From an uncultured Ruficoccus sp. (GTDB lineage Bacteria; Verrucomicrobiota; Verrucomicrobiia; Opitutales; Cerasicoccaceae): DNA of 64,000 nucleotides. Positions 1,415 through 22,410 of the stretch are shown piece after piece. The DNA lies in NCBI GenBank assembly GCA_965140785.1, contig OZ223517.1, forward strand, positions 1-64,000, written 5' to 3'. Both the position numbers and the translations under genes were made by a program. Position 1 is the stretch's first letter. Every line of letters starts with the position of its first letter. The notes under the pieces are model-generated. The model ran no database searches, was not told the DNA's origin, and worked only from the letters and a program-made list of their open reading frames with translations.

Positions 1415-1980
1415 GCCATTTTTAAAAGTCGGGATATCAAAAACGTTGGCCATGGCGGAGAGTCAGCATGGCCAAAGTGCGTATCTCCATCGGGAGACAG
1501 ATCATGCCGACGTTGCAATCTTGCATGGATAGATACAATACTCTCTTGTAGCGTAAAGTCGCCTTGGCCTTTGTGCAAAATCCAAGCATAATCGTGCCAG
1601 TATTTTCGATTGTGTAGAATCAACCGACGGACGAGCCAGCCATGACATGGAGGATGCCGGTATGGTGGGATACTCAATGAAAAGCTTCTCAGCGACCAAC
1701 CCTCCCTATTATGCATTCAGGAGCTAATCTCGCTTACATCTGACTGAACAACGAAACGCCCTGCCCTCCTCGTGGCGATGTCCAGGTGAACCCCAAGGTC
1801 CCATTGGCCTTCTTTGCTACCTCATCTCCGCTGCGCTCTGTCAACCTCAATCCCCGTTCCTCTTCGGTAATCGTACGACCCTTTACGCGATAACACACGA
1901 CAGCATTCATTATCGTCGATCCGTAGCAAGCACGTGATTGAAATGACAGAGCCTCCCAACTCGCGGATGCTGAGACCGCG

Positions 1981-3150
1981 TTGAGCCATACCCCTGGGCA
2001 GTCCTTGACCGAACAGGTCCTGGAATTGAAGGGCATGAAGGAGCGCGTTGCCAAGGTCAGTAATATAGGGCTGGAAAACGCGGTGGCTTTTTTCGAGAAA
2101 CACTACCGGCCCGAGATTGCCACGATAGGCATCCATCAAGCTTGCGAACAGTTTCTGGCTTCGCGGACGGGCCGTTCAGAACAGACGGTCGAGTATTACC
2201 GCAAGTGCTTGAGACTGCTGATAACTCCCGACCCCAACAAGCAGGTTCACGGGTTTACGACTTGGGATATGGCCACTGCCCTGTCCGGCTATGACCACAT
2301 TGGAACCCAGCGCACCTACCGTCGCGGACTGAATGCCTTTTTCAACTGGGCAGTCCGGGCAAAATATTGCCTGGAAAACCCCTGTGACCATCTGGAAGCC
2401 TTACCCCGTCAAAAGCGCGATGTCGTCATTCTTCGATTAGGGGAAGTTCGGCAACTGCTGTCTGCCTCCTGTCGCTACCAAGAGGGGGTGATGGCTGCTT
2501 CGATTGCCATCATGCTCTTTGCAGGATTGCGTCCCAGCGAGCTATCCGACCTGACTCCCGCAGATGTACGGGAGGGGAACCTCATCATCTCAGGGGGCAA
2601 GATGGAAGGTAAGATCAAGCGCCGGGTACCGATTGTCCCCGTACTGGCATCGTGGCTGGAAACGTATCCGTTTACGGGGGTTCCGAAAAACTGGTATAAG
2701 AAGGTGGAAGTCCTCAAGAGGGCAGTCCAGCCCGAGCAATGGGTCAGCGATATCCTGCGGCACACCAGCATCAGCTACCAGATCGAACGCGACGAGGACA
2801 TAGGCAAGGTGGCGACCCGGAACGGTACCAGCGATAGCATGATTACCCTGCACTACCGCGATGTGGTTGAGGACCCGGCTGATGTTACTGCCTTTTGGGC
2901 GCTGACACCCGAATCCGTCAAGGACGTTGTTCTTGCCGGGGCCTTACCTGCCCGACACAGTGTCTCATGGCCATCCGACTCGGACCTCAAGGCGCTGGTC
3001 TGGGAAAAGCCCTTGTCTCGTCTGGCCGATGATCTCGGGGTGTCAGACCAGGCCATCCGCAAACGCTGCCTCAAGCGCGGGATAGAGCTGCCCAAGAATG
3101 GGCACTGGCAGCGGCGGGCGCAGGGAAAGCTGAACGATGCGCAGTGCTGA
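1981..3150 (+). CDS. Tyrosine recombinase/integrase with C-terminal HTH extension
   Basis: FAGLRPSEL (catalytic R), DILRHTSISY, MITLHY (catalytic Y); C-terminus LVWEKPLSRLADDLGVSDQAIRKRC. Start codon uncertain. Confidence 0.85.
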   Translation: MSHTPGQSLTEQVLELKGMKERVAKVSNIGLENAVAFFEKHYRPEIATIGIHQACEQFLASRTGRSEQTVEYYRKCLRLLITPDPNKQVHGFTTWDMATALSGYDHIGTQRTYRRGLNAFFNWAVRAKYCLENPCDHLEALPRQKRDVVILRLGEVRQLLSASCRYQEGVMAASIAIMLFAGLRPSELSDLTPADVREGNLIISGGKMEGKIKRRVPIVPVLASWLETYPFTGVPKNWYKKVEVLKRAVQPEQWVSDILRHTSISYQIERDEDIGKVATRNGTSDSMITLHYRDVVEDPADVTAFWALTPESVKDVVLAGALPARHSVSWPSDSDLKALVWEKPLSRLADDLGVSDQAIRKRCLKRGIELPKNGHWQRRAQGKLNDAQC

Positions 3151-5154: not shown

Positions 5155-5332
5155 ATTTTACCTTTATTTTATTGTTCATTTTTGTGTTGTGTGGGCTTCG
5201 ATCCTCTAGCCCCCAAGCCAACACTCATCCCAAAAACAAACCTGCCCGCTTACAACCCAGCCTTGCGTAGACAGAGACCTCTCACTCCCATTAAACCACC
5301 ATCCCCCTCATCTACCTTTTAGCCGCCTGATT

Positions 5333-5603
5333 GCGGACACGGACATACCCCTTATAAGGGGTATGTCCGTGTCCGCGTATGGGCGGCGGCAGCTTGTCAC
5401 GGTTTTGTTTAAAAACACCCCAAGCCAGTCCGGCTTGGGGTGTGATCCATCAACCTGAAGGTTGATGGATAGCGTGGATGAGAAAACATTCTCATCCACG
5501 CCCTACGCAATCGCTCTGCGATAGCTTTTTTTTGGGGACGGACAGGCAGGTTTAACTGCCTGTCCGTCCCCAAAAAACATTGCCCGGTCACAGCCGGGCA
5601 ATG
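5333..5603. repeat. Array of six inverted repeats, including a perfect 44-bp palindrome
   Basis: Inverted repeats at 5333-5376, 5415-5443, 5445-5470, 5472-5501, 5528-5577 and 5578-5603, each checked base by base. Confidence 0.9.
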
Positions 5604-5633: not shown

Positions 5634-6503
5634 TTATGACTCCCCCTCGCTTATTCCCAAGATGAGGTTGGCGGCTTTCTGGGCCTGACTGGCCGCGATA
5701 ACAACCAGCTTACTGTCGCCTTTGAGAATGTTGATCCAGCCCTGAAGGTAAGCGGCTGAGTTCTCAATGACGCTGTTATCAATGCCACAGTGGGCGCAGA
5801 GGAAGGCAGAGGTCATTTCGGCAATGAGTTCCTCGCGGGAGTAGTCCTTATCTCCGAAGTCTCCCTCAAGTTTGCGGTCAAGTCGATGCTTGGCCCCTGT
5901 CGAGTGCCCTAGCTCATGGAACCTCGTTGCGTAATATTCCTCCACGGAGTCAAAGCGAGCCTTAGGCGGGAGCTGGATTTCATCGGTAGCCGGGAGGTAA
6001 CAGGCGTGTTTGTAGCCGTGCAAGACTTCCGGGCCATCCTTCCAGCCTGCAATAATCTGCTCGGCGGCTTCGATAGGTGAGAAGGCCAGAGGGTCTGATT
6101 CGGGCAAGTCGGGGAATTCGATCCCTTCAACCTGACAGGCGTTAAAGACCGTGTAGGATTTGAGAAAGGGGATTTTCCGGGTCTCTCCGTCCTTGTCGGT
6201 GGCGGGTTTGTCGTTGTTCTCGTCGTCGCGTTCAAACGTGCCCCAGTAGACCACGGGCAAGCCCTTGCTGCCTTTGGTAATGCTCCCTCCTTTGGCCTTC
6301 ACCTGGTTAAAAGTCATGAAGTAAGGCAGGTCGAAACTGGCGGTCTGCAAGAGAAACCAGTTTATGCCGGAGTAAGGCCGGTCACTGGCAAAATTGCGGG
6401 GACGGCCTGCAATGCGGCTCCAAGGCTTGCGCCAAGGGCAGACGCCCTTTTCCAGCAGTTCGATCATACGTTCGGTCACTCGGTCGTAGGCGGATTTTTT
6501 CAT
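5634..6503 (-). CDS. ardC: ArdC family antirestriction / ssDNA-binding protein (DUF1738 plus zincin-like domain)
   Basis: PWRKPW, RPYSGIN, FMTFNQ, YTVFNACQ, FHELGHSTG, YSREELIAEM and SAAYLQGW motifs. Confidence 0.92.
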   Translation of the reverse strand: MKKSAYDRVTERMIELLEKGVCPWRKPWSRIAGRPRNFASDRPYSGINWFLLQTASFDLPYFMTFNQVKAKGGSITKGSKGLPVVYWGTFERDDENNDKPATDKDGETRKIPFLKSYTVFNACQVEGIEFPDLPESDPLAFSPIEAAEQIIAGWKDGPEVLHGYKHACYLPATDEIQLPPKARFDSVEEYYATRFHELGHSTGAKHRLDRKLEGDFGDKDYSREELIAEMTSAFLCAHCGIDNSVIENSAAYLQGWINILKGDSKLVVIAASQAQKAANLILGISEGES

Positions 6504-6903: not shown

Positions 6904-6970
6904 AACAGGCGTCAGGCAATAAGAGATTTGATAGCTGGATTACCCAATTCGGGGGCAACCGCCACCGAAC

Positions 6971-7675
6971 ATGGGACCCCAAAACATCAGACGCGTCTTA
7001 ATCGCCTTAATCGTCGGGCTGGTTTTTACCGCCCTCGGACGAGGCTACGAATATGCCCGCATGTGCGTAAAATATCCGCATACGCTGACCCGCACAAGCT
7101 TCACCGTCCACGAGAATCCGAACGCCACGACCGTCATTATGGTCAATATGGATGGGCAGTTTTTCAGCGTATCCGCGCAGGACTACACCCCGCTTTTACG
7201 GGCGATGGAGTCTGAACTTTCCGACTGTTCCGAGGCGGCGGTTTACGTCGTCAAGGGCGAAGCGGATGCCGCCGCCATGCTGGCCAAGCATACCGGCATT
7301 AAGCGCTTCATCTACATCGCTCATGGCGTGGACCCCGGTTTCTTTCAGGGGCAGACGTCGGAGACAACCATCCAAGAGGACATGTACTACCCGCAGATTT
7401 CCTACGGGGTAGCCTTCTCGATCAGCCCGATGTGGGAGGCCTTCAAGGAGGCTTCCGCCCCGGATGCCCAGCTTGAGCTGATTTCCTGCCGGGTGGGCGG
7501 CAATGCCGACTACCTGCACCAACTGGCCGACGCGACCGACGCCCAAGTCACCGCCTACGCGGGCACGATTATGAGCAATTCCGTTTTCCTTCACAAGCCC
7601 GGCAAAGTCGTTGTCGAGCCCACCCAACCTACCCATGAAGACATTCCTCAACCCCTCGCATACTCGGCGCAATAG
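6971..7675 (+). CDS. Membrane-anchored hypothetical protein, DUF4347/clan-CD peptidase-like
   Basis: N-terminal hydrophobic helix; FIYIAHG and LELISCRVG...LHQLADATDAQVTAY give a His/Cys dyad pattern. Confidence 0.55.
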   Translation: MGPQNIRRVLIALIVGLVFTALGRGYEYARMCVKYPHTLTRTSFTVHENPNATTVIMVNMDGQFFSVSAQDYTPLLRAMESELSDCSEAAVYVVKGEADAAAMLAKHTGIKRFIYIAHGVDPGFFQGQTSETTIQEDMYYPQISYGVAFSISPMWEAFKEASAPDAQLELISCRVGGNADYLHQLADATDAQVTAYAGTIMSNSVFLHKPGKVVVEPTQPTHEDIPQPLAYSAQ

Positions 7676-8219
7676 CCACGCCTTTACCCTGATTGAGCTG
7701 CTGACGGTGATAGCCGTCATCGGTATCCTGGCGGCAATCCTGATCCCCGTGGTTGGCAATGCCCGTACCTCTGCTCAAGCCGCCAAGTCACGGGCCATGT
7801 TCACGCAGATTGCCAGCGCATGCCTTACGTTCAAGGCCGACTATGGCTACTGGCCCTGCGACGACGGGGACTCACTGGAAACCGATGGGGTTATCGATAT
7901 TCTCTCCGCCTCGGATGCTTCTGGTGTGCGCGACAAGAACCGCCGCATGATCACTTATTACAGCCCCAGCGAATACTCCGAAGACGGCAATTATGTCATC
8001 GATGCGTTTGGGAACAGCGACATCAGGATTGTTTTTGCGGATACCAAGACGAAGATTCCAACCATCTCCATCAAGAGCAAGAAGCTCCAGACGGGCAACC
8101 CGGATGACAACCCATCTGGACGTGAAAATCTCACCGTCAATAAGTCGGACATCCATGCCAAGATCGCGGTTTTCTCAGCGGGCGACGGAAAGAAAGCCGT
8201 TGGCTCATGGTCCGATTAG
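7635..8219 (+). CDS. Type IV pilin / pseudopilin 1
   Basis: Class III signal RRNSHA|FTLIELLTVIAVIGILAAILIP; DYGYWP and DAFGN motifs. Confidence 0.88.
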   Translation: MKTFLNPSHTRRNSHAFTLIELLTVIAVIGILAAILIPVVGNARTSAQAAKSRAMFTQIASACLTFKADYGYWPCDDGDSLETDGVIDILSASDASGVRDKNRRMITYYSPSEYSEDGNYVIDAFGNSDIRIVFADTKTKIPTISIKSKKLQTGNPDDNPSGRENLTVNKSDIHAKIAVFSAGDGKKAVGSWSD

Positions 8220-8254
8220 CCGGGCCGAAAAACCACTCATCAAAGGAAGACACG

Positions 8255-8911
8255 ATGTTTACCCTACGCCAGAAAAAGCCGGGCTTTACGCTGATCGAAC
8301 TGCTCACGGTCATCGCCGTGATCGGCATACTTTCGGCCATCCTGATCCCCACGATTGGAGCTGCCCGCAAGTCAATGAACAAGGCGTCGGCCAAAGGTCT
8401 TTATACGACCATCGCCAACGCGCTTGAAGCCTATCGGATGGACATGGGCTCGTACCCACCGATCAACTCCAGATTCAGCCATACGGCGGAAATTGATGGG
8501 CGTGACGTGACATATTATGCCTTCGAAATCGACGAGAGCGTCAAGAACGGGCTGACCATTATCGACTACCTGACGGACCCCGATGAGAACCGCAAGCGCA
8601 GGCAGTATCTCGAACTGGACGGCAGCAACCTGAACGAAGACGAGGAGCTTTGGGACGCGTTTGGAAATACGACGCTGGGGGTCGTTATCGCGCCGGAAGG
8701 CACCGTCACTAATGCCATGTTGTCCACCGTCAAATTACCGGAAGCCGGTGCCACCAGCCCGACCTACAAGTTTAACTCAAGCGCCGCGCCGTTCTCCACC
8801 CGCGTTTTTATCTGGGGGCTCGTGGATGTCTCCAAGAGCGGCAACAACAAGACCGCAAGCTTCGTCGCTTCAACCGCTTTGTCCGGTTCCGAAGCCACCA
8901 CCAAACAGTAA
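8255..8911 (+). CDS. Type IV pilin / pseudopilin 2
   Basis: KKPG|FTLIELLTVIAVIGILSAILIP; DMGSYP and DAFGN motifs; Shine-Dalgarno AAGGA upstream. Confidence 0.9.
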   Translation: MFTLRQKKPGFTLIELLTVIAVIGILSAILIPTIGAARKSMNKASAKGLYTTIANALEAYRMDMGSYPPINSRFSHTAEIDGRDVTYYAFEIDESVKNGLTIIDYLTDPDENRKRRQYLELDGSNLNEDEELWDAFGNTTLGVVIAPEGTVTNAMLSTVKLPEAGATSPTYKFNSSAAPFSTRVFIWGLVDVSKSGNNKTASFVASTALSGSEATTKQ

Positions 8912-8944
8912 TCCTTTCCGCAAACCTTAACTCACAATCACCCC

Positions 8945-9124
8945 ATGAAAGTATCCATCAACGTCCTCACTATCTCGTATCTGATCCTCGCACTCGGAGC
9001 CGCAGGCATGGCGATCTACGCGCCCTATCTCGACCAAAAACTGATCTTCTCCGGGCTGGCTTGCATCGGCCTGGCCGGACTGCTCACAGCCCGCAAGAAG
9101 CACTGTAGTACCGCCAACAGCTAA
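8945..9124 (+). CDS. Small two-TM membrane protein (59 aa)
   Basis: MKVSINVLTISYLILALGAAGMAIYAPYLDQKLIFSGLACIGLAGLLTARKKHCSTANS*; fills the gap between pilins 2 and 3; below the ORF track length cutoff. Confidence 0.6.
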   Translation: MKVSINVLTISYLILALGAAGMAIYAPYLDQKLIFSGLACIGLAGLLTARKKHCSTANS

Positions 9125-9130
9125 GCAACC

Positions 9131-9802
9131 ATGCCCATGAAACGCCACCGCCACGGATTTACCTTGATCGAACTTCTTGTCGTGATGGGTGTTATCATCA
9201 TCCTTGCTAGCCTGACAGTCGGCATTCAGCGCTATGTCTATTCTATGCAGTCCACTACCAAGGCCCGAGCGGATCTGCATGCCATTGCCACCGCTCTGGA
9301 GACGTACAAAATGAAGTACGGAGACTATCCGTGGCTCGGCTCGGCCAACGATTCCAAGATCAGTGACGGCTTGGCCTCAGACACTTCGGGCGATCTCTAC
9401 CTGGTCCTGACCGGGCAGAAGGTATTTGTTAGGGATGGCGTTGACGAAGCAGGGAAGCCCAAATGGAAGATGGGCAACAACTCCGGCACACAGGTGCCGT
9501 TCCTCGCTCCGAAACTCCTCTCGGTAACCGAAGTCAATGGCGTTTCCTATATCGTGGACCCATGGGGGAATCCGTACAAGTATTCCTACAAGTCAGGCTC
9601 AAAGGATACATCGTGGCAAAGCGCGGGCTTCACCCTCATCTCCATGGGACCGGACGGAAAGGTAACGGACTCGATTTTTAATCGAGTCAAAGTCGGAGAC
9701 ATGCCTACCGAGGCTGAATTCCGCGCCGAGACAGAGGCACTCAAAGACAAAACGCCAGATACCTGGCCCAGCTTTGACGACGTTGTTTACGGCATGCAGT
9801 AG
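9131..9802 (+). CDS. GspG-like pseudopilin 3
   Basis: HG|FTLIELLVVMGVIIILA; LETYKMKYGDYP, DPWGNPYKY and LISMGPDGK motifs. Confidence 0.9.
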   Translation: MPMKRHRHGFTLIELLVVMGVIIILASLTVGIQRYVYSMQSTTKARADLHAIATALETYKMKYGDYPWLGSANDSKISDGLASDTSGDLYLVLTGQKVFVRDGVDEAGKPKWKMGNNSGTQVPFLAPKLLSVTEVNGVSYIVDPWGNPYKYSYKSGSKDTSWQSAGFTLISMGPDGKVTDSIFNRVKVGDMPTEAEFRAETEALKDKTPDTWPSFDDVVYGMQ

Positions 9803-9867
9803 CAAGCATCCCTCGGAAGAGTCTAACCAGCGACAGAACCACACGGACATCCTACCTTTCTAACGCG

Positions 9868-10632
9868 ATGAGTCTCCCCGCACACCCTTGGGACATCCCT
9901 ACCGTTGCCTTTGAAAACAGCCAGGCGCTCGCAGACCACAAGTCAGATCGTATCGTGCGTTTTATAAGCATTTTTGTTCTTCCCCTCATCGTAGCTGCGG
10001 TGGTGGGAATCCTTGCCGGTATCCATTACCTGATGCCGGAGGAAAGCTTCATGGAGAGCTTGTTAGCGATTATCGGTTTGATCATAATCGGAGTCGGTCC
10101 CTTTCTTCTTGGTCTTGTTGAAATCGGGCTTATTTGGTCTGTCACCTTCGGCTACTGGCTCAGAATGAAAGCTGTGCGTGCACAACACTACGCAGAAAGA
10201 AAAGAACAGGTCATCCAAGCCATCGGCAACAAATTGCCCAACAATGGCCACTACTGGTGGACAACCCCCCTTAACTGGAACGAAGCCACCCTCATCTATT
10301 CCGACGGTGCCCTGGCCATCGTCAGCTTCTCGGGCAACTGGATCAGCTACATCAACGCGCAGGATGTGCGGGACATGAACGTCCAGGGAATTGAAACCGG
10401 CAGCTCCAGCCAAAGCCGGGGCTACTCAAATTCGGTTGGCGGACTCATCGGTCAGCTTTATCTGGGCACCACCCGCAGCAACATCAATACCCAGACCGTC
10501 AACCACTACGACTACATCATCGACATCTACACCCGCAGCATCGGCCACGAACACCTCATCCTCAACTACGGGGCCGACAGCAATGCCGCCAAAAAGACCT
10601 ACGCCACACTGCAAAACTGCGTCTTCAATTAA
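9868..10632 (+). CDS. Hypothetical membrane protein (N-terminal TM helices plus soluble beta-rich domain)
   Basis: Long hydrophobic segments at about aa 30-55 and 65-95; co-oriented with the pilin genes. Confidence 0.65.
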   Translation: MSLPAHPWDIPTVAFENSQALADHKSDRIVRFISIFVLPLIVAAVVGILAGIHYLMPEESFMESLLAIIGLIIIGVGPFLLGLVEIGLIWSVTFGYWLRMKAVRAQHYAERKEQVIQAIGNKLPNNGHYWWTTPLNWNEATLIYSDGALAIVSFSGNWISYINAQDVRDMNVQGIETGSSSQSRGYSNSVGGLIGQLYLGTTRSNINTQTVNHYDYIIDIYTRSIGHEHLILNYGADSNAAKKTYATLQNCVFN

Positions 10633-10899: not shown

Positions 10900-13800
10900 A
10901 TGAATAGTCTGTTTACCTGGATTCCTATACACTCTGAAACAACGGCCAAACTCCTCACCTTTGCGGAAGATCGCACTCGACTGATCCATGTACTATCCGG
11001 CATGGCTGAAGCAGGCTTAATGGTGGGTAATTTGACTGATCAACCCCAAAAGGGTGTTCAGGAAGAGATGCTATCCGACGTTGATCCATTCACCTTCTTG
11101 GCGGTATTCAACCGCACGATCACAGACGACAACCGTCGATCCCTGTGGAGTTGGCTGAAATCGGCTTGGGAGCTAAAATCCGAGCTACCCAAAGATTTCA
11201 ACGGGATTCCTAGAATCTCAGCCCTGAACTTCCGGTTTATGCCTTGGCGCCATGACCAGAAAGATGGCGATTGTGAATGCTTGTGGGATTTTGCCAAACG
11301 CGCCTGCGAGCATCCCGATGCCGTCAGTAACAGCCTTTTTCAGAATGCCCTCCGGGTAAAAACGGTAGGGCTGGCCAAACTCACAATGGGACTGTACTGG
11401 ATGAAACCGGAAACGTACCTGTCGCTGGACAAAAAGAACTGTGCCAGCCTGCAAACGCTTGGCCTGAACCCAAGCGTCAATACATGGGACGAATACAAGG
11501 CTCTACTCTCAGAGTTCAAAAAGCGGTCGAAGCAAAGCATCCCCGAGTTTACTTACGCTGCTGATTCGTCCATCATCGCCCCTTTGATGGCGAAGTTCAA
11601 AAGGATTATGCCCGATTTTGTGGACTTCCAATATCCGGGAGAAAAACTCAAAGAAAACGAACTCAACTACAAGCGAAAGCTACTTTCCGATTTTCAGCTC
11701 AAGCAAGCGGATATTGAGTCAGCCTTGGATAGAGGCGACGCATTAAGTGCAATTGAGGAACTGAAATCCTTAATTGTTCCAAGTCATTTAATTAATTGGC
11801 GTACGTGGGATTTAGCTTTCGGGAATCCGATCCAAGAAAACTCAGCGCTAGCGATACTCAATTCCATTCGCCAAGTCAGCCACCAGCCCTACACCAGCCC
11901 TGATTCGCTGGCTCCGGTGTTTGACGCTATGAAAACGCATGACAGTAAGATCGGCTGGGGCTTGCTGACCATGCTGCTTTGGCTATGGAATCCCCAAGAG
12001 TATTACCTGATCCGCAGTACAGCGATAAGAAACTTCGCCAGCCAACTGGGTCATAAGCTTAAAAAGGTTTCCCCCGACCCAATACATTTCGATGAATTCA
12101 TGCAATTGGGCAAAGAAGTCCGACAATTACTCGCCCCGTGGAAACCCCATGATGATTGGGTAGACGTACAATCTTTCATTTGGGTCACGACCGTATGGGA
12201 AGATACCAGTGAAAAAACCACAGCGGACAGCCACATCTGGGTAGTCGCTCCCGGCGAAAACGCTTATCTATGGGATGAATTTTATGAAGATGGAATCATC
12301 GCTATCGGATGGGATGAACTTGGAGATTTATCAGAGTATTCCAACAGAGATGACATTCAGAAGGCACTAACATACGAGCAACCTGACAAAAATCCTCGAA
12401 ACAACAGCTTAGCCTGCTGGCAATTTGTTCATGCGATGCGCAATGGGGACTGGGTCCTCATAAAGAATGGAATGCGAGAAGTTTTAGGGATAGGGATCGT
12501 AACATCTGACTACCAATTTGACACAGACCGCGACACATACAAGCATGTGAGGACCGTAAATTGGCTTAAGCGTGGTAATTGGGATGTATCACCAATTACC
12601 TTTCCAATGAAGACACTGACCGACTACACCTCCGACACGACAAGGGTTCGTCAGGTTTTAAAACAAATGAGCGTTACACCGTTACCGCCGTTTATCTCAG
12701 ATGGTGCGATTACGGATGACCCCGGTCTGGCTCCTCCGTTTGACCGCTGTTTTTCCAGCAGAGAAGAGGCCGAATGCTTACTGGACTTGGGAGCAACGGC
12801 ACTGATGTCGCTAGGTCTGGACATGGAATCCGGGGATGACCCACGCATAGCAATCACTCTGCCCGAGACTATCGCTGGCAGCAATGGCGCATTACGCGTC
12901 AACTTCGGCAAAGCGGTAGCTTTCAGCTATCTACTGGGGACGAAGGAAGGGGCTACTTTTCAGTTCTCTTGCCGCCGTGACCTTCTTCCTGCCAATGTGG
13001 CCGATCAACGTGTAGATACAACTTTTAGCCCATGGGGAGAGGATACTTATCTACTGGTAAGAATGCCAGTCGAGTGGACAGCAGATGACCATGCACAAGA
13101 GATCATTTGCGCGTCAATGGACGGATTAAAAAAACACTTCTCGGCATGGAAAGGAACGCCTTACCGCCAGTACCATAATCCCAAATTATTCGATCTTTTC
13201 TTCGATGAGGTTCGTCGGGCCGAGTTGCTGGGCAAGGGACTACGTGATCCAATTGTAATGGACCCGGATACTGAATTAAACGAACCCTACCAGCCAGCGG
13301 ATGCATTACAGGAACTCTTCATTAGTGAGGCCGTCTATCAGCGTATGGCGACTCTGCTGCGTAGGAAAAAGAACCTGATCCTGCAAGGCCCCCCCGGAGT
13401 AGGTAAAAGTTTTCTCGCCAAGCGACTGGCCTATTCGCTCATGGGTGAAAAGGACAAAAGGCGGGTTACCATGATCCAGTTCCACCAATCATACGCTTAC
13501 GAGGACTTCATCCAAGGGTATCGGCCCAGTGGCGGTGACGGGGCCAGTTTCGAGAAAAAGGATGGAGTCTTTTACCGTTTCTGCAAACGGGCACAGGCAA
13601 ACCTCGACCAAGATTACTACTTCATCATAGATGAAATCAACAGGGGCAATCTCAGCCGTATATTTGGCGAGTTAATGCTGTTGATCGAGCACGATAAACG
13701 CGGCAGCGACTATGAACTCCCGCTTACGTACACGCCGGATGAGCATTTTCACGTTCCTCAGAACGTACATATTATAGGGATGATGAATACTGCCGACCGA

Positions 13801-14163
13801 TCCCTGGCGATGGTAGACTACGCTCTGCGTCGTCGTTTTGCTTTCATGACCCTTGAGCCAGAATTTGGTAGCAATAAGTTCAACCAACACTTATCGGCCA
13901 TGCAAGTTAGCGAAGCCGTTATTGGCCGCATATGTGAACGCATGACCTCATTGAATAAGCTGATTGCCAACGAGTCGCGTGACCTCGGGCGAGGTTTCTG
14001 TATTGGACACAGCTTCTTTTGCCCCACCAGCGTCGTCGAAGACTCAGAAATGTGGTATCAAGAGGTGATTGAATCCGAAATCCAACCGCTTTTGGAGGAA
14101 TATTGGGCAGACGGAGCCCAAGACAAGGTGGAACAAGAGATAGAAAAGCTGCGCCATGGCTAA
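10900..14163 (+). CDS. mcrB: McrB-like AAA+ GTPase with a long multi-domain N-terminus
   Basis: GPPGVGKS, QFHQSYAYEDFIQG, IIDEINRGN, MNTADRS, DYALRRRF and IGHSFF motifs. Confidence 0.92.
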   Translation: MNSLFTWIPIHSETTAKLLTFAEDRTRLIHVLSGMAEAGLMVGNLTDQPQKGVQEEMLSDVDPFTFLAVFNRTITDDNRRSLWSWLKSAWELKSELPKDFNGIPRISALNFRFMPWRHDQKDGDCECLWDFAKRACEHPDAVSNSLFQNALRVKTVGLAKLTMGLYWMKPETYLSLDKKNCASLQTLGLNPSVNTWDEYKALLSEFKKRSKQSIPEFTYAADSSIIAPLMAKFKRIMPDFVDFQYPGEKLKENELNYKRKLLSDFQLKQADIESALDRGDALSAIEELKSLIVPSHLINWRTWDLAFGNPIQENSALAILNSIRQVSHQPYTSPDSLAPVFDAMKTHDSKIGWGLLTMLLWLWNPQEYYLIRSTAIRNFASQLGHKLKKVSPDPIHFDEFMQLGKEVRQLLAPWKPHDDWVDVQSFIWVTTVWEDTSEKTTADSHIWVVAPGENAYLWDEFYEDGIIAIGWDELGDLSEYSNRDDIQKALTYEQPDKNPRNNSLACWQFVHAMRNGDWVLIKNGMREVLGIGIVTSDYQFDTDRDTYKHVRTVNWLKRGNWDVSPITFPMKTLTDYTSDTTRVRQVLKQMSVTPLPPFISDGAITDDPGLAPPFDRCFSSREEAECLLDLGATALMSLGLDMESGDDPRIAITLPETIAGSNGALRVNFGKAVAFSYLLGTKEGATFQFSCRRDLLPANVADQRVDTTFSPWGEDTYLLVRMPVEWTADDHAQEIICASMDGLKKHFSAWKGTPYRQYHNPKLFDLFFDEVRRAELLGKGLRDPIVMDPDTELNEPYQPADALQELFISEAVYQRMATLLRRKKNLILQGPPGVGKSFLAKRLAYSLMGEKDKRRVTMIQFHQSYAYEDFIQGYRPSGGDGASFEKKDGVFYRFCKRAQANLDQDYYFIIDEINRGNLSRIFGELMLLIEHDKRGSDYELPLTYTPDEHFHVPQNVHIIGMMNTADRSLAMVDYALRRRFAFMTLEPEFGSNKFNQHLSAMQVSEAVIGRICERMTSLNKLIANESRDLGRGFCIGHSFFCPTSVVEDSEMWYQEVIESEIQPLLEEYWADGAQDKVEQEIEKLRHG

Positions 14164-15205
14164 ACCAATCCCCATTGAAAACATCTACTACCTGCTTTGC
14201 TACGCTTGGGACAAGCTCGATGAAGGGGAATTGGCCGCAGCCAGCCATGAGCAATGCGAAACCCTGCAAGACCTTTTCGCAAAGGTCCTTGTCAGCGGCA
14301 CACAACGATTAATTCGTCGCGGATTCCACCGAAACTATCAGGAGAAAATCGAAGATGTACCCGCCCTACGTGGGCGCATTGCCTTTTCTCCTTCAATCCG
14401 TGGTCTGACATGGACGCGAGGGCGCATGACATGTGAGTTCACCGAGCTTAGCTATAACACGATTCCCAACCGGATTCTCAAGACAACCCTGCGCAACCTG
14501 CTCTATTGCCGGGGCATATCCATCGATAACAAAAATGGTATCGTGTCTGTCCTTCATCATCTGCACGAGGTAGAGTCTATCCGCATCAGCAAGCCCATTT
14601 TTCGACGCATTCAATATCATCAGAACATAAGTTCATATCGCTTTCTTATGCATGTCTGCGAGTTCATACACGATCAGCTTTTGCCCTCCGAAACACCGGG
14701 GGAGTCAGTTTTTCGCGACTTTCTAAGAGACGAAAAGAAAATGGCTGACTTGTTCGAGGAATTTGTGCGCAACTTTTACCGACATAAAACCGAGTTTAAT
14801 GTCGGTCGTCGCAATTACAAATGGGAAGGCTTCGAGGGGCCGGATATCTCTCGGCAAGTGCTGCCGACGATGAAGACAGATGTAGAACTTCGCGACGGGG
14901 AACGGCTTATTATCCTGGACTGCAAATACTACTCACAAGCATTGACCGCACAGTATGACACACAAAAACTTCGGTCAGCCAATCTTTACCAACTCTTTGC
15001 CTACTTAATGAATGGCCAAATTCGGGACAGCAGGGAACGAGGCCACGACACCCCCATCACAGGCATGTTACTGTACCCCGTCGTTGATGAAGCCTTTCGG
15101 CATGATTTTACTCTCCAAGGTCACCCGGTTCGTATCTGTACGCTCAACCTGAATCAACCTTGGCAAGATATTGAACAGGATTTACTGGATTCCGTAGTTT
15201 TCTAG
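14156..15205 (+). CDS. mcrC: McrC restriction endonuclease subunit
   Basis: IENIYYLLCYAW, LFEEFVRNFY, MKTDV...ILDCKYY (PD-(D/E)xK) and NLYQLFAYL motifs; overlaps the mcrB stop. Confidence 0.92.
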   Translation: MAKPIPIENIYYLLCYAWDKLDEGELAAASHEQCETLQDLFAKVLVSGTQRLIRRGFHRNYQEKIEDVPALRGRIAFSPSIRGLTWTRGRMTCEFTELSYNTIPNRILKTTLRNLLYCRGISIDNKNGIVSVLHHLHEVESIRISKPIFRRIQYHQNISSYRFLMHVCEFIHDQLLPSETPGESVFRDFLRDEKKMADLFEEFVRNFYRHKTEFNVGRRNYKWEGFEGPDISRQVLPTMKTDVELRDGERLIILDCKYYSQALTAQYDTQKLRSANLYQLFAYLMNGQIRDSRERGHDTPITGMLLYPVVDEAFRHDFTLQGHPVRICTLNLNQPWQDIEQDLLDSVVF

Positions 15206-16870
15206 CCGCATGGCTTCGGCCTCAATGAGGCGGCTGTCGTCGAACAGGTCGAGGGTGGCGCCGTTGCGGTAGTGGATGCGGATGAAGCGCTGGAGTTTCA
15301 TGTATTTGACCAACTCGCGATTGTGGGCGGCATTCCTGCCCGTCAGGCCCTGCTGGATTTGGGCACGGTCGGCAATGTAAGCTTCGTCGTCGCCCTCGAA
15401 GAAAACTTCGATTTTTGAGAATGTCCTCTCAAGTATGGCCCGGTACTTGTTGCGCAGGACGGAATCAGACCGTAGCCGGGGGCCAAGCCCTTCGTCGAAG
15501 GCGAACAGGAACATCTCCTCGTCGCTGGCACACTGACTCAGCAGGAAGCGATTGAGGGTCTGCTGACGCTCAGTGAGGCTACTTTCTAGTTCGACTAGTT
15601 GCCGTTTGAGGGATTCGGATGGGCCGACCTCAGCAATGGCCCGAGTGACATTATCAAGCTGCGATTTCAGGGTGTCGATCTCAGCCCGGATTTTATCGAT
15701 CTTGGACGCCTGCCAAGAGTCGGCCTCGTGCATGAGTTCGAGGTACTCCTCGTTGAGGGCATGAACCAGAAACAGCCTCTCGAAGTCGGCATACTCCCAA
15801 GCCATGTAGTAGTCAACCTTGCCTAATTTGCAGTACGATGGAGAGAGGTACTGCCAGCGCCCCTTATTCAAGAAGTGGACCGGACAGCCCGTGTAGGCAT
15901 CGGTCAGTAAGCCAGTGAAGAGGTTGTTGACGGTCCTGTCCTTGGCGTAGCCGCGCCTGCCGCCTTTGCCTTTGCGGCTGGCAAGGGCAGCCTGAGCCCG
16001 ACGGAAAGTTGCCTCGTCGATGACAGACGGGTAGTAGTTTTCAATCTCGACGCCGTTGGTTTTACGGCCACCGGTTTTGTCGTCGCGCCTATGCTGCACG
16101 TAGGTACCAAGCGCGGCCTTGGTGGTGAGCAGGCGCTGGACATAGCACTCCTGCCAGGCCTTGCCTCGTCCCCATACGGGTTCATTCCGCTTGTTTAGCG
16201 TATGAGTGATGGTGTAGACGCCAAAGCCATCTTCGATGCACATAGCATAGATTTCCCGGATGAGCTTCACCCGGTCCTCCAAGAGGATGAAGCGATCTTT
16301 ATCCTCGCTAAGGATCATCCACGCGGGGCATTGAGAGGTAAGGATTTCACTGCCAGCTTTTCGTTGTTTTTCGGCCCAGACCTTTCGGAGTCGGTCGCTC
16401 TTAACGGCGCTTTCTTCGTTGGCCCTGACGAATGCCAATTGAACCTCAAAAATGGCGAAGCGGGATTCGTTGAGTTCGGCCTTGTTGTAAATTTTCGCTG
16501 GGGGCTGAGAGACCCCAATGTCCACGTAGTCGATGATCTCCAAGAACAAGGTCGTGGCCTCAACAATCTGCTGCCGGGACAAGCGGTCCAGATTCTCGAC
16601 GATGAGAACGCTTCCACGCTCGACCTTGCCTTCCTGGCAGGCTTGCAGAAAGGCACGCAGATTCCCGGCGTGAGCGTTTTTGCCCCGAAGGGCTGACACG
16701 CCAAGATCCTGATACGTCTCCGTACTCAACTCCAAGTTGAACCGCTCACAAAAGTCCTGAGCGGCTTTGGTCTGGCGTCTCAGGCTGTCGCCCTGTTCCT
16801 GTTTTTTGGATGAAAAGCGGATGTAGGAATACGCCTTCCGTTTTGGTTTTGTCGTCGTTTTTGTTTCCAT
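15182..16870 (-). CDS. Large serine recombinase
   Basis: AYSYIRFSSKKQEQGDSLRRQ, LIVENLDRLSR, recombinase domain ending YYPSVID and a coiled coil; start at 16870 preferred because of the promoter motif. Confidence 0.9.
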   Translation of the reverse strand: METKTTTKPKRKAYSYIRFSSKKQEQGDSLRRQTKAAQDFCERFNLELSTETYQDLGVSALRGKNAHAGNLRAFLQACQEGKVERGSVLIVENLDRLSRQQIVEATTLFLEIIDYVDIGVSQPPAKIYNKAELNESRFAIFEVQLAFVRANEESAVKSDRLRKVWAEKQRKAGSEILTSQCPAWMILSEDKDRFILLEDRVKLIREIYAMCIEDGFGVYTITHTLNKRNEPVWGRGKAWQECYVQRLLTTKAALGTYVQHRRDDKTGGRKTNGVEIENYYPSVIDEATFRRAQAALASRKGKGGRRGYAKDRTVNNLFTGLLTDAYTGCPVHFLNKGRWQYLSPSYCKLGKVDYYMAWEYADFERLFLVHALNEEYLELMHEADSWQASKIDKIRAEIDTLKSQLDNVTRAIAEVGPSESLKRQLVELESSLTERQQTLNRFLLSQCASDEEMFLFAFDEGLGPRLRSDSVLRNKYRAILERTFSKIEVFFEGDDEAYIADRAQIQQGLTGRNAAHNRELVKYMKLQRFIRIHYRNGATLDLFDDSRLIEAEAMRLENYGIQ

Positions 16871-16975
16871 GAAGCTAGTGTACCTCATGAAGGAGGTTTA
16901 CGTCGGCTTCAGCCTGGGCAAAAATCAGGCACAGCTAAAATAACTGTGCCTCACGATGGGAATTGGCCTCGGGGC

Positions 16976-17650: not shown

Positions 17651-18107
17651 AGGTCAAAGCTCCTTTCTGGGACTCTGAGTGAGCCTCGTCATTGCTGGCG
17701 TCGGGCCAGAACAAAACAATCGCCGCGACAATCAGCCCAATGACGGCAAGGGCACAGCCCATCTTGACTTTGAAGATGAGCAGCTTCTCTTTGATGCGCT
17801 GGTCAACATCTGCCTCGGTAAGTTGTTGTGGCGTGGGAGTGGGCTCCGGCCTCGATTGCTCCAGTATCTGCGTGATCTTCTGCTGGCCATCAGCCAGTGA
17901 ATCGATCTGAGTACGGTGCTGTTCTTGCGCCTCTTCCTGACTGGTAACTTGACGGACGAGAACGGCCTCCCGCTGCGCCATTTCGCCAAGCTCCTGCACG
18001 ATTTTTTGCATGAGAACGTCGGGAACATCCGGCCCCGCGTTTGCTTGCTGGTGGATATCCTCGATACGTCGCTGGATATTATCGTCGCCCATTAGAGTCT
18101 CCTCCAT
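17640..18107 (-). CDS. Coiled-coil protein with C-terminal TM helix (MobB/MbeB-like accessory protein)
   Basis: Gln/Glu-rich coiled coil followed by GCALAVIGLIVAAIVLFW; immediately downstream of the relaxase. Confidence 0.6.
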   Translation of the reverse strand: MEETLMGDDNIQRRIEDIHQQANAGPDVPDVLMQKIVQELGEMAQREAVLVRQVTSQEEAQEQHRTQIDSLADGQQKITQILEQSRPEPTPTPQQLTEADVDQRIKEKLLIFKVKMGCALAVIGLIVAAIVLFWPDASNDEAHSESQKGALTYAL

Positions 18108-19207
18108 ACATGCTTAGCCCGGTAGAACGGGGGTGGTGAGGCGAAGGCATCATCGATGTCGTCAAGTCCGTCCAGCAGACCTGAAGCGATACCAAGGAAG
18201 GTTTTCTTGAGTGCTTTTTTCATCTTTTCTTTCTGGTTGAGGTTAAAATGGATTGCAGGGTTTCGATCTGCGTGAGCTGCACATCCAGCAGCATTTCTAA
18301 GTTCTGGTTGAGCCGCTGCACCTGCTGGTGAAGCTCGGCCAAGCGCTCCGACTGTTCGGCCAGTGGCTCCTTCAGGGCGTTTTCCAGTTCGCGGGTTAAC
18401 GCCTCGATCCAAGCGGGAATCTGAGCGGCAGGGGTGAGAGTGGTGAGTTTTTCCATAAAAGTTGATCGTTCGGTTCAGCCGCGAAAGGGGCATACCCAAA
18501 CGGGTGCCCGTGAAAAAGATGGGGCTACCAGCCTCTCCGAAGGACACGCCGACACGGTGGCCGTCCTGCCCCCAACGCCAGCGGACAGTGATGCCCTGAC
18601 GCTGGCAGCGTTTGATAAAGTCGGCATGGTCACGGGCCAGATAGGCGTTGGCCCGAACCTGCTCCGCAAGTATGAGCTTTTGCGGGACCGGGTGGGTACG
18701 TTTCCCCTCCCGGTAAAGACGATCTGAGCATTCAAGCTCGTCTTTGTTCACGCGGAGACGCTGCGAATGCTGGGCGGTCTGGCCCAAGCTGTAATCCTTT
18801 TCCGCCTGCTGGCAAAGTGCCCGCATCCGGTGCCTGTCATTGCTGGTGGATACAGCTTTTCCATTGAGCTGAATCCGATTGCCGACAACATGGACATGCT
18901 CACAGTCGGTGTCGTAGTGGCGGATCACTACATACTGCTCAAAGCCGTACTCAGAGGCGACACCGTGAGCGAAGTCAGCCCACTGGTCAGCGGTGAGCGT
19001 TTCGCCCTTGGCCAGTGAAAATGCAAGGTGCGCAACGGGCTTCTTGCATCGGGTGTTGAGCGCCGCCAACAGACCAAACTCCCCGATCATGCTGTTCGGG
19101 TCGCGAGCGGTTAGATTGCCCCCAACTAACTCAGGAGACTTGTCCCGCTTCATCGCATACCCAACCACACGGGCGAACGACTCGCGGTAGTTGATCCGAG
19201 CAATCAA
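18092..19207 (-). CDS. Relaxase / mobilization nuclease (MOB_P, VirD2/MbeA-like)
   Basis: N-terminal VVGY, HLAFSLAKGE and HUH motif RHYDTDCEHVHVVGNRI. Confidence 0.9.
   Translation of the reverse strand: MIARINYRESFARVVGYAMKRDKSPELVGGNLTARDPNSMIGEFGLLAALNTRCKKPVAHLAFSLAKGETLTADQWADFAHGVASEYGFEQYVVIRHYDTDCEHVHVVGNRIQLNGKAVSTSNDRHRMRALCQQAEKDYSLGQTAQHSQRLRVNKDELECSDRLYREGKRTHPVPQKLILAEQVRANAYLARDHADFIKRCQRQGITVRWRWGQDGHRVGVSFGEAGSPIFFTGTRLGMPLSRLNRTINFYGKTHHSHPCRSDSRLDRGVNPRTGKRPEGATGRTVGALGRASPAGAAAQPELRNAAGCAAHADRNPAIHFNLNQKEKMKKALKKTFLGIASGLLDGLDDIDDAFASPPPFYRAKHVWRRL
18220..18456 (-). CDS. MbeD/MobD-like coiled-coil protein nested out of frame within the relaxase gene
   Basis: ATG-started 78-aa heptad-repeat ORF (LAELHQQVQRLNQNLEMLL) lying within the low-complexity relaxase tail. 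Confidence 0.6.
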   Translation of the reverse strand: MEKLTTLTPAAQIPAWIEALTRELENALKEPLAEQSERLAELHQQVQRLNQNLEMLLDVQLTQIETLQSILTSTRKKR

Positions 19208-19584
19208 TTCACACCTCCCGCTTTACCGCCGAGAAGGGAACTCCGCACCTGTGACAGAATCTGGCTTAGCTCGTCAAGCGTAGCCTGCGCACGTGCTGAG
19301 CCGGGATGATCGTTCCCGGTATGGCAGCGATGGGCGAGTTGGTTCAGGTTGGATGCGGCCTTCGATAGTTCTCGCCACTGGTCCTGATTGACCGCTGGGA
19401 TGGGCACACTGGCCTGCACGGTTGAGCCAAGGGCGGCATCCCGCAAGTAAGTGCTGAGGGTCTTGCCCGCAGCCGTGGCCTTGGGCTGCACAACTTCAAG
19501 GTCGGCGGGGCTTAGTTTACTGGTGACCGGTATCCGGCGACTATAAAAATTTATGGGGTTCGGGTTCTTGCATGGGGTAGTCAT
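19204..19584 (-). CDS. mobC: MobC relaxosome accessory protein (RHH)
   Basis: AAGKTLSTYLRDAAL and ASNLNQLAHR motifs; its stop overlaps the relaxase start. Confidence 0.85.
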   Translation of the reverse strand: MTTPCKNPNPINFYSRRIPVTSKLSPADLEVVQPKATAAGKTLSTYLRDAALGSTVQASVPIPAVNQDQWRELSKAASNLNQLAHRCHTGNDHPGSARAQATLDELSQILSQVRSSLLGGKAGGVN

Positions 19585-20540: not shown

Positions 20541-21959
20541 TTACTTCGAGGGCTTCTTTTTGCCCGGTCTTCCACGCTTCAGGGACACGCCTAGTTTGCA
20601 GACATAGCGGGAGATTTGGGAACATGAGAGTTTGATCCCATGCCCCGCCTTCAATCCGGCCTGAATGGTGGCGAGGGTGGAATCCGCCTTGAGTAATCCC
20701 TTGATGGCGGCAGCAAGGGCCTCCCGATCAAGGGCTCGACTGCCCTTCTTTTTCTCGGCGGCAATCTCCTCGGTGTAGATGGTGCCCAAGCCCATCGTCC
20801 GGCATTCTGCGGTGGACAGCCCAAAGAACTTGGCCAGCCCAATCGCCGTATGCCGGGGAACCTCTGACGCTGTAAAAGCCAGTTCGACTAAATCCTCGGG
20901 CGGTGTGTCGTTCGCCTCACAGGGATAGGCCGGGAGGCATTTGCGGGCGTGCTGATTCAGCAGGTCAACTGTGGCTGGTTTGCTCCAGCCTGCCGCCCTT
21001 GCGGTAGCGGCCAAAATCAGCAGGGTCTTGTACCGAAACCCGTGTTTGACCGGGTGGGCGGCAATCACCGACTCCAAGTCGGTCAGCCTGCGAGCGCCAA
21101 GAGCGAGTTGGCCTTGCTTGCCCGCGCACTGCCGTTGGTAGCGTAAGCGCGGACTCACAGTCTTCTTTGGCAGGGTTTCGTCGGGCCTGACCACCTGCAA
21201 CACGGGCAACACCACAGTCGAAGATGAGCCAGGTCTCAATCCAAGCCTCTCGGCCAACAACTCCATCTTGTAGGGTGGACGGTCGCCAAGGGTGTATTTG
21301 ACCGTCGTTCCCGATTTCCCGTTGGTGCTGCCGGGGAGCCGTAAAACACGGGCGGCGTCATGGATGCCATCGGGACAAAGCTCGGGGGCATGGTCTGCTA
21401 TATGGCCAGCCAGAGCCCGGTTCAGTAACTTGTACAAGTCCACATCCCGCGCATGGGAGCTGTGAGGGTACAGCATCCACAGGGCATACAGGCCACGGCC
21501 CGAATCGGCCACCAGCGACGCTTGAGGGAGAGTCGCCTTAGCGATGGCTCGCTCCAAGGCATCAGCGGCGGCATCCCAACCAGCCAACCGACAGGAGTGG
21601 TAAAAGTCCATGTCCACATACAGGAATCTCAGGTCTTGCAAGTTCACCTCCTGACGCTGGCCCGGCAGGGCTGCTCCGGTACGTCGGCAGGTGCCTTTGT
21701 TATAGACCCGGTGGAAGCCGTTCGGCTGCATGGGGCCGACCCGGTAGAATGTATTCAGCGTAAAATACACATCGGTCAATTCAGTCGGGGGAAGCAGCTC
21801 GTACACACGGCCCACGTCCTTAACCGGCAGAGCCCCGATGTGCTGCCAGCCGGTGCCGGTGGCTGACTTTCTGGCGAAGATGACGTAGCCTTCGCCCAGT
21901 CCGGCGATTTGCTCAAAGAGCTTCTTGGGGTTGGATAGGGTATCAGCGTGGTAAACCAT
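20541..21959 (-). CDS. Replication initiator with RepB-primase/AEP-like domain
   Basis: YFTLNTF, LYVDMDF, DSGRGLYALW and DAARVLRLPGSTNGKSG motifs; HTH-like C-terminus. Confidence 0.75.
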   Translation of the reverse strand: MVYHADTLSNPKKLFEQIAGLGEGYVIFARKSATGTGWQHIGALPVKDVGRVYELLPPTELTDVYFTLNTFYRVGPMQPNGFHRVYNKGTCRRTGAALPGQRQEVNLQDLRFLYVDMDFYHSCRLAGWDAAADALERAIAKATLPQASLVADSGRGLYALWMLYPHSSHARDVDLYKLLNRALAGHIADHAPELCPDGIHDAARVLRLPGSTNGKSGTTVKYTLGDRPPYKMELLAERLGLRPGSSSTVVLPVLQVVRPDETLPKKTVSPRLRYQRQCAGKQGQLALGARRLTDLESVIAAHPVKHGFRYKTLLILAATARAAGWSKPATVDLLNQHARKCLPAYPCEANDTPPEDLVELAFTASEVPRHTAIGLAKFFGLSTAECRTMGLGTIYTEEIAAEKKKGSRALDREALAAAIKGLLKADSTLATIQAGLKAGHGIKLSCSQISRYVCKLGVSLKRGRPGKKKPSK

Positions 21960-22334: not shown

Positions 22335-22410
22335 TGGAGCCGGGGGACGGAATCGAACCGACGACCTACTGATTACAAATCAGTTGCTCTACCAACTGAG
22401 CTAACCCGGC
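22335..22410 (-). tRNA. tRNA-Thr(UGU)
   Basis: GCCGGGTTAGCTCAGTTGGTAGAGCAACTGATTTGTAATCAGTAGGTCGTCGGTTCGATTCCGTCCCCCGGCTCCA; 76 nt, anticodon TGT, encoded CCA. Confidence 0.97.

Follow-up and report, generated by a model that had tools for sequence, protein, structure and literature searches.

Known pilus-replacing elements and accessory proteins

The closest described counterpart of the locus analysed here is P-FimU, which is encoded by F10-like prophages of Pseudomonas aeruginosa and, in the available parts of its description, enters the pilus and blocks tip-binding phages; this element-encoded replacement of a host pilus subunit (involving one pilin, in Pseudomonas prophages) is there termed a first example (PMC12952977). 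TfpY-like accessory proteins are tied to variant pilins and aid pilus assembly, and they are reported to confer no phage defence (PMC11841053). Two further papers (PMC12378983 and PMC13723633), in the parts available, added nothing about element-borne pilins, and literature searches turned up neither a description of the present cassette nor pilin cargo on integrative mobilizable elements.

The cassette lies within a 64,000-nucleotide stretch of DNA (hereafter 'the window'). It resembles the P-FimU system, as far as the available text describes the latter, in that a mobile element with no pilus machine of its own encodes diverged homologues of host minor pilins (28% there; 37-49% here) that occur as diverse alleles. 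It differs in that the carrier is a relaxase-bearing integrative element rather than a prophage, and in that it bears three pilins of two non-FimU families, accompanied by a predicted protease and by one small membrane protein. In particular, the island pilin heads match those of the host pilins A and B (described below) and not H, and are thus not of the FimU/GspH type; nor is the cassette prophage-encoded. The original statement, that no system with this arrangement was known, was therefore overstated: the strategy has a precedent in P-FimU, and what is new is the kind of carrier, the set of three pilins and the predicted protease as partner.

Organization and conservation of the cassette

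The cassette comprises six co-oriented open frames on the plus strand (6971-10632), borne out as real genes and, as the coordinates confirm, tightly packed between ardC (on the opposite strand) and mcrBC:

g1, 6971..7675, plus strand: 234 aa; protein either exported or anchored in the membrane, its predicted peptidase fold clan-CD/DUF4347-like with His118/Cys173
p1, 7635..8219, plus strand: 194 aa; type IV pilin paralogous to host operon gene B
p2, 8255..8911, plus strand: 218 aa; type IV pilin, the most diverged of the B-family paralogues
m1, 8945..9124, plus strand: 59 aa; hydrophobic protein without a family, with one or two membrane helices predicted from hydropathy
p3, 9131..9802, plus strand: 223 aa; type IV pilin paralogous to host operon gene A, its head GspG-like
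m2, 9868..10632, plus strand: 254 aa; membrane protein of two helices, in an exchangeable final slot outside the conserved core

A search for conserved synteny in other genomes recovered the arrangement once more, in a single genome of the same genus (G003, whose proteins match Ruficoccus amylovorans records), where g1, p1, p2, m1 and p3 follow ardC in the same order on a sister element located at a different tRNA. Identity between the two elements is 91% for ardC and 83% for both g1 and m1. The gaps between successive cassette genes, from g1 to m2, are -41, 35, 33, 6 and 65 nt; the final 41 nt of g1 overlap the start of p1, and an identical 41-nt overlap is found in G003. The last slot in G003 is occupied by an unrelated 157-aa membrane protein, and the neighbouring cargo is an RHS-tip/immunity-like pair instead of mcrBC. 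A fixed six-gene core, as originally proposed, is accordingly ruled out in favour of a conserved unit of five genes and a swappable sixth. Alleles of m2 are themselves only 49% alike across residues 26-128, with flanks that are 89-100% alike. Neither m1 nor m2 belongs to a Pfam or NCBIfam family; an Atlas match of m2 to DUF4755 (0.87) is a lead only, and three weak partial matches to m2, located within long ORFs (E 2e-4 to 9e-4), were not accepted as relatives. Promoter and terminator counts at the cassette are at chance level, and PADLOC matched none of its six proteins (0/6).

The carrier element

The surrounding genes identify the cassette as cargo of a tRNA-integrated mobilizable element, as had been proposed:

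tyrosine recombinase, 1981..3150, plus strand: near the probable left border of the element
ardC anti-restriction gene, 5634..6503, minus strand: Pfam ArdcN and MPTase-PolyVal; fixed upstream neighbour of the cassette, in the same position in G003
mcrB-mcrC restriction cargo, 10900..15205, plus strand: absent from the G003 element
large serine recombinase, 15182..16888, minus strand: Pfam Resolvase and Recombinase; 92-93% in G003
MOBP-type relaxase and MobC, 18092..19584, minus strand: profile matches
probable replication/primase protein, 20541..21959, minus strand: PHROGs E 4e-6 and 2e-5
tRNA-Thr(TGT), 22335..22410, minus strand: right border of the element and insertion hotspot

A MOBP relaxase, MobC and a recombinase at a tRNA site together define what we take to be the class of integrative mobilizable elements, with which this element has core genes, tRNA location and variable cargo in common. 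It carries a relaxase, MobC and a recombinase beside a tRNA and has no pilus or secretion machine: no pilus ATPase, platform protein, secretin or prepilin peptidase was found among 20 element ORFs scanned, in agreement with the first reading of the locus, and no phage structural match among 14 proteins tested. No attL/attR direct repeat was found, the longest tRNA-derived match elsewhere being 11 nt. Different island genes border tRNA-Thr(TGT) in genomes G001-G004, and sister elements sit at tRNA-Phe.

This setting bears upon the possibility that the variant pilins confer a new adhesive specificity, aiding cell contact, aggregation or mating-pair formation for mobilization of the element. Minor pilins often have adhesion functions, and the cassette is fixed beside ardC on a relaxase- and MobC-bearing element at two different tRNAs. 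Against this, a sister element in the same genome (contig C39, at tRNA-Phe) has the same mobilization core without the cassette, and MOBP relaxases depend on a helper type IV secretion system; we regard this explanation as quite unlikely.

Ancestry and divergence of the island pilins

All three island pilins exceed the Pfam N_methyl and TIGR02532 cut-offs (3/3; N_methyl scores of 31.6 bits for p1 and 30.4 bits for p2), and the class III signal peptides originally noted are present in each (3/3), with a basic leader, G/A followed by F, Glu5 and a hydrophobic helix. The Ala at position -1 in p1 is common to 18 of the 49 pilin-like ORFs of the genome. While p3 passes the broad Pfam T2SSG domain (34 bits), the island pilins score only 38.1, 45.1 and 52.3 bits against the TIGR01710 cut-off of 88.85, and a true host GspG is found in a separate type II cluster; GspG orthology is therefore ruled out, also for p3, which had been described as GspG-like. 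The Verru_Chthon profiles (TIGR02596/02598/02599/02600) likewise do not describe them, with matches of at most 24.6 bits that are N-terminal only.

Their relatives are instead found in a host operon of five pilins, A-B-H-I-J (G000:C18:67157-70753), that occurs in 8 of the 9 host loci retrieved (B is missing from G035) and in 6 of 6 A-family metagenome loci, and whose H, I and J products are weakly like the Verru_Chthon cassette proteins D, B and C, below cut-off. The p3 protein is 49% identical to host gene A (C18:70082-70831), and p1 and p2 are 37-38% identical to the product of the gene adjoining it. The island pilins are related to the two leading genes of the host operon as old, diverged paralogues (p3 of A, and p1 and p2 of B), with helix and head motifs in common; the island departs from that operon in having no H, I or J, a pair of B-type genes and another gene order, and in adding g1 and m1. 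The motifs previously quoted as evidence of a p1/p2 duplication on the island are present, but they also occur in the host B pilin and hence mark the family; a p1+p2 clade was neither found nor rejected (p-AU 0.225). The best match of the p1 head is the island p1 of G003, followed by B-family pilins.

In phylogenetic trees the island copies form their own lineages (support 100/100, 100/100 and 100/99), and p3 groups with the island p3 of G003 (100/100) within a genus clade (94/90). Pairing of each p3 with its own host A was rejected by the AU test (p-AU 2.9e-7 and 6.8e-7), and with it recent copying of p3 from the host (p<1e-6). Values of dN/dS between the window and G003 are 0.13-0.37 across the cassette genes (0.13 for m1), indicating purifying selection. 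Identity of the island pilins to those of G003 is 75-84% in the helix and 36-58% in the head (p1, 84% and 52%; p2, 75% and 36%), and p2 occurs with three C-terminal head types that are 33-40% alike, the third accompanying a g1 N-terminus that is 92% like that of the window. Between G000 and G003, the heads of host A and B are 61-63% alike, as compared with 82% for the type II GspG head, a difference in keeping with subunits exposed on the pilus. Variable heads are not peculiar to the island: divergence comparable to that of p1 and p3 is seen in the heads of host A, B, H, I and J (with head dS near saturation).

Distribution of the cassette

The cassette has a narrow range. Among 401 genomes of the order, g1 and m1 each occur in two; g1 is found in 1 of 401 genomes of a phylum sample, and a search of 1.84 billion entries returned only two g1 representatives. 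No g1 relative was confirmed among 134, 11 and 36 pattern matches in the available metagenome, genome and viral contigs, respectively; none was found in phages, neither g1 nor p3 relatives were found in viral contigs, and a plasmid match to g1 at E 0.8 was disregarded. A metagenome scan with p3 (80 of 246 loci kept) gave no locus with g1, m1, m2 or ardC matches (0/80), six of the kept loci being host-type operons, and a search with the p2 head returned only p2 itself. Eroded versions of the cassette were recovered as a g1/p2 fusion (P0005) and as one low-depth contig without g1-p1-p2.

Such a distribution could reflect passive capture, in which host pilin copies and unrelated small cargo ride together without joint function. 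The narrow range, the swappable last gene, the deletion derivatives and the abundance of stand-alone pilins in the genome all accord with it. The frames are nonetheless intact and under purifying selection after long divergence, the trees have long private stems, and gene order and overlap are conserved; passive capture thus appears the least probable of the readings considered.

The predicted peptidase

The His/Cys pattern originally recognised in g1 (AHG...SC) is present and, at residues H118, G119, S172 and C173, invariant in 8 of 8 relatives (59-94% identity). Both the AHG (His118) and SC (Cys173) motifs follow predicted strands in the structural model. The best fold match, from one weak model (pLDDT 60; a second, trimmed model was worse, at 54.5), is Tce1 (PA0256, DUF4347, PDB 9qpe), with Z 9.0, rmsd 3.6 and 134 aligned, the next match scoring 7.7; sequence identity is 14%, and the His186/Cys240 spacing of 54 in Tce1 compares with 55 in g1. 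A Foldseek search gave nothing at E<=0.001, with caspase-4/11 at E 0.016 among Rossmann folds, and Atlas returned DUF4347 and C80 clusters at 0.88 and 0.87. No sequence match to g1 was found in the PDB, nor to Pfam PF14252 (gathering score 24.6; the relative P0004 reaches 13.8 bits), nor is g1 similar to the RHS tip of G003. Model topology and fold match suggest a clan-CD/DUF4347-like His/Cys fold, as had been proposed, and g1 is best described as a predicted, putative peptidase of that kind. The membrane anchor assigned to it holds in part: an N-terminal hydrophobic stretch exists, but it is weak (Kyte-Doolittle 1.77, with none >=1.6 in relative P0011), such that it may be a signal peptide instead.

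Tce1, in the available parts of its descriptions, is a putative cysteine-protease effector carried as type VI cargo bound to Hcp3, in contrast to the hydrophobic N-terminus and pilin-operon location of g1, and no effect on yeast growth is reported for it there (PMC13323088, PMC8262886). By analogy, the cassette could be an export or display module made up of a secreted cysteine-protease effector (g1) and of pilins acting as its dedicated adaptors on the host type IV filament machine, serving competition or anti-grazer defence. In keeping with this are the Tce1 match itself, a possibly cleavable N-terminus, the conserved g1/p1 overlap, the RHS-tip gene on the G003 element and the many locus-specific pilins of the genome (49 by pattern). 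This possibility is nevertheless unlikely: conservation of g1 (83-96%) beside turnover of the pilin heads is the reverse of what a toxin would show; the likeness of the pilins is to A and B, not to type II GspG; and Tce1, as described, uses type VI secretion and leaves yeast growth unaffected.

Proposed role in remodelling the host pilus

The host encodes PilD and a complete type IVa pilus machine; its genome has ATPases of PilB/GspE type (four) and of a shorter PilT type (three), as well as secretins and platform proteins, consistent with the expected dependence of the island pilins on host functions. We infer that the A-B-H-I-J operon is a type IVa minor-pilin set. As the favoured candidate role, to which we assign somewhat less than even confidence, element-supplied variant minor pilins would remodel the surface of the host pilus, probably against phages. 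The host prepilin peptidase would likely process the three island pilins, the host machine would likely build them into its pilus, and the altered surface would probably change what pilus-binding phages recognise; g1 (a predicted His/Cys peptidase) and m1 may act as accessory partners outside the cytoplasm or in the membrane. For m1, TfpY-like proteins offer a possible role model, by their available description only.

Several observations argue for this role: the paralogy to A and B, the separate island lineage, the conserved helices with variable heads, and the purifying selection. The ardC and mcrBC neighbours, the host machinery and the P-FimU precedent further suggest it. Counted against it are the replacement of mcrBC in G003, the lack of PADLOC matches, the eroded versions, the comparable variability of host heads, and the chance that the synteny shared with G003 stems from shared ancestry of the element and not from joint function; in addition, P-FimU mimics FimU, which the island pilins (not being H/FimU-like) do not, and no protease partner is described for it in the available text.

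Alternatively, the pilins and g1 may jam or trim the host pilus, through dominant-negative subunits or pilin proteolysis, decreasing DNA uptake or phage entry via removal of the pilus. The predicted protease fold of g1 would accommodate this, as would host genes that, recognised by eye, we take to be ComEC- and ComF-like. An imbalance of minor pilins, according to the available text on P-FimU, can also disrupt assembly (PMC12952977), but jamming by a peptide would not need three pilins of full length whose heads diversify and are kept by selection, and we judge such an outcome decidedly unlikely.

Implications

Surface remodelling by variant pilins has a more elaborate, and correspondingly doubtful, form in which a non-phage element bears a multi-subunit kit, its three swappable-head pilins replacing host subunits and its dedicated clan-CD cysteine peptidase editing the pilus or destroying its binders. 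If true, the kit would combine receptor-replacement defence with an enzymatic arm, and would give a first clue to the role of the Verrucomicrobia five-pilin operon. The narrow range of the cassette and its putative function limit its weight. The cassette suggests that subunit replacement is also practised by mobilizable elements and in another phylum, and that it can involve several subunits together and a protease partner. It further singles out two genes as worth swapping in a Verrucomicrobia pilin operon that is family-wide and unstudied, and the function of this pilus would thereby become testable in a named species, Ruficoccus amylovorans.

The cassette and its mobile element

The six reading frames that the original prediction placed between ardC and mcrBC were borne out, with two starts settled (p1 at 7635; m1 at 8945-9124) and with intergenic gaps, from g1 to m2, of -41, 35, 33, 6 and 65 nt.

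Features in the window
~1.6 to 22.3 kb: mobile element, right end at tRNA-Thr, left border approximate
6971-7675, +: g1, predicted His/Cys peptidase
7635-8219, +: p1, type IV pilin
8255-8911, +: p2, type IV pilin
8945-9124, +: m1, small membrane protein
9131-9802, +: p3, type IV pilin
9868-10632, +: m2, membrane protein

Besides the cassette, ArdC and McrBC, the element encodes two recombinases (one of the tyrosine and one of the serine type), a MOBP relaxase, MobC and what is probably a replication protein; its left border is approximate because no att repeat was found. As had been predicted, none of the 20 element ORFs scanned encodes a pilus machine. A sister element of the same genome, at tRNA-Phe on contig C39 (113830-145600), shares the mob/recombinase core and carries a sugar-utilisation locus as cargo, which bears its own pilin. 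In four other genomes (G001-G004) the tRNA-Thr flanks are occupied by other island genes. Downstream of ardC, at 5322-5387 and 5528-5577, lie two long hairpins that pair almost perfectly; both are kept in G003, a genome of the same genus, where an extra copy of the first adjoins the serine recombinase gene. Two low-GC genes without assigned family (3690-4547 and 4711-5154, both -) have a short similar stretch in common, the former with a weak DUF6573 match, and McrB (10900-14163) is unusually long (1087 aa), its N-terminal region matching PADLOC PDC-S02 models.

All three pilins exceeded the Pfam N_methyl and TIGR02532 cut-offs and none reached that of the GspG equivalog; g1, m1 and m2 had no family above cut-off in Pfam and NCBIfam scans. 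The m2 gene is a mosaic, its ends 89-100% alike between alleles and its membrane part 49%, and its Atlas lead is DUF4755.

Recurrence in other genomes and reads

A synteny check in related genomes demonstrated that G003 has the gene run ardC-g1-p1-p2-m1-p3, with an identical 41-nt g1/p1 overlap, on a related element located at tRNA-Phe; five genes of the proposed six-gene unit thus keep their order, and m2 does not belong to it there, an unrelated 157-aa membrane protein being found instead. The G003 proteins match Ruficoccus amylovorans records. Both g1 and m1 were detected in 2/401 genomes of the order, each time the window genome and G003, and protein records, grouped solely because their contigs are equally long, point to probable further carriers: one with ardC, g1, p1, p2, p3 and m2 together, a second with ardC, g1 and m2, and a third in which the 157-aa gene accompanies a fusion of g1 with p2. 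Contigs from sequencing runs X3, X6 and X7 (from three studies, none of them the one that may be the source) cross the g1-to-p1 junction, and in X3, X4 and X7 the match ends at 7855, the end of the p1 helix and the same point at which the G003 match ends; the whole cassette was not found on one contig among the run contigs.

Several eroded forms of the cassette were also observed. Record P0005 is an in-frame fusion of g1(1-88) to the p2 tail; one X4 contig (depth 2.7) joins 6949 to 8944 without g1-p1-p2; and in P0016 p1 is called without its leader, next to a g1 with a shifted C-terminus. At L036:11689-13624 the G003 element also encodes a transglutaminase/TPR-like protein, an RHS-core tip that bears a signal and in which an HG...GC pattern was recognised by eye, and a small, immunity-like membrane protein.

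The predicted peptidase

The predicted AHG...SC pattern of g1 held, in that His118-Gly and Ser-Cys173 are unchanged in 8/8 relatives. A structure model (pLDDT 60) displays an alternating strand/helix fold with His118 and Cys173 each following a strand, and a fold search of 48,161 chains returned Tce1 as the top match (Z 9.0, rmsd 3.6, 134 residues, 14% identity; next 7.7). Excerpts of two papers respectively place a DUF4347 domain in PA0256 (PMC8262886) and align His186/Cys240 of Tce1/PA0256 with a known cysteine-protease domain (PMC13323088). Foldseek on the model gave no match at E<=0.001, caspase-4 and -11 appearing at 0.016 among Rossmann folds; in the Atlas, DUF4347 (0.88, 30% of members) and C80 (0.87, 13%) came up as leads. 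A clan-CD-like peptidase fold is therefore likely, though still provisional. The N-terminus could be either the membrane anchor claimed earlier or a signal peptide. That g1 is exported as an effector, with which a signal peptide would agree, is unlikely; what connects g1 to the pilins is gene overlap and gene order only.

Origin of the island pilins

The p3 pilin is 49% identical to gene A of the host genome (contig C18), and p1 and p2 are 37-38% identical to the adjoining gene B, these being the first two genes of a five-pilin operon, A-B-H-I-J. In trees, every island pilin groups with its own G003 island counterpart with full support, and a long stem leads to the p3 pair, which falls inside the genus clade (94/90). 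Recent copying of p3 from its own host's A was rejected by forced pairing (p-AU 2.9e-7 and 6.8e-7). Duplication of p1 and p2 on the island, earlier argued from shared motifs, loses that argument, as host B has the motifs as well; a p1+p2 clade constraint is neither supported nor rejected (p-AU 0.225).

The operon, apparently undescribed so far, was found at 8/9 host loci fetched (G035 is without B) and at 6/6 A-family metagenome loci. In the host genome (C18:67157-70753; L001:11158-14754) it adjoins rho; it is family-wide, has fast-changing heads (the pilin part after the N-terminal helix), is without a K-type gene and has GC3 below that of its flanks. Two stand-alone A-family pilins lie outside the operon in G016, from another family of the order (L026:1372-2097, L034:1357-2136), and in a copy of the operon from metagenomes a 126-aa gene separates H from I (L050:2120-2500, L052:6048-6428). 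At window 1-1443 (-) is the 5' part of a giant GspK/Verru_Chthon-A-like gene, cut by the contig end; TIGR02600 has weak N-terminal matches in 8 other ORFs >1000 aa.

The host genome encodes one PilD, seven T2SSE-family ATPases, five secretin matches and four platform ORFs, together with PilA-like and PilM-Q-like genes recognised by sequence. A low-GC3 cluster (C10:438000-448000; L145) combines a secretin with genes that by eye resemble those for type III secretion.

Selection and possible function

For the single window/G003 pair, dN/dS (Nei-Gojobori, own script) was 0.20 for g1, 0.37 for p1, 0.32 for p2, 0.13 for m1 and 0.18 for p3, the pilin ratios being rough because head dS is near saturation; beside these values, the reading of the cassette as passive cargo appears the least probable of all. 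Identity is 75-84% over pilin residues 1-55 and 36-58% over the heads, versus 91% for ardC and 83% for g1. The p2 C-termini fall into three types, 33-40% alike, one of them joined to a g1 N-terminus 92% like that of the window. An island-specific arms race is disfavoured, because the heads of the host operon pilins A, B, H, I and J diverge too (60-68% alike between the same two genomes); since that of the host's type II GspG reaches 82%, we infer from sequence that the A-B-H-I-J pilins belong to an exposed type IVa pilus.

The assembly helices are conserved and the heads variable, the neighbours in this copy are of the defence type, and P-FimU offers a precedent; together these points suggest that the island pilins would probably enter the host pilus, and, more tentatively, that once incorporated they may alter a phage receptor. 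The same pilins might instead serve adhesion or mating, which is rather improbable, or jam the pilus, which is marginally more so. The literature searched, subscription papers being outside its coverage, yielded no published account of this cassette, nor one of a mobilizable element that carries pilins together with a DUF4347-like gene. To return to entry into the host pilus, P-FimU is described, in an excerpt of PMC12952977, as a prophage FimU homologue, 28% identical, that enters the pilus and blocks phage. Because its carrier is no prophage and its pilins are of another type than FimU, the cassette is not a member of that system; if the inference holds, it would nonetheless act alike.
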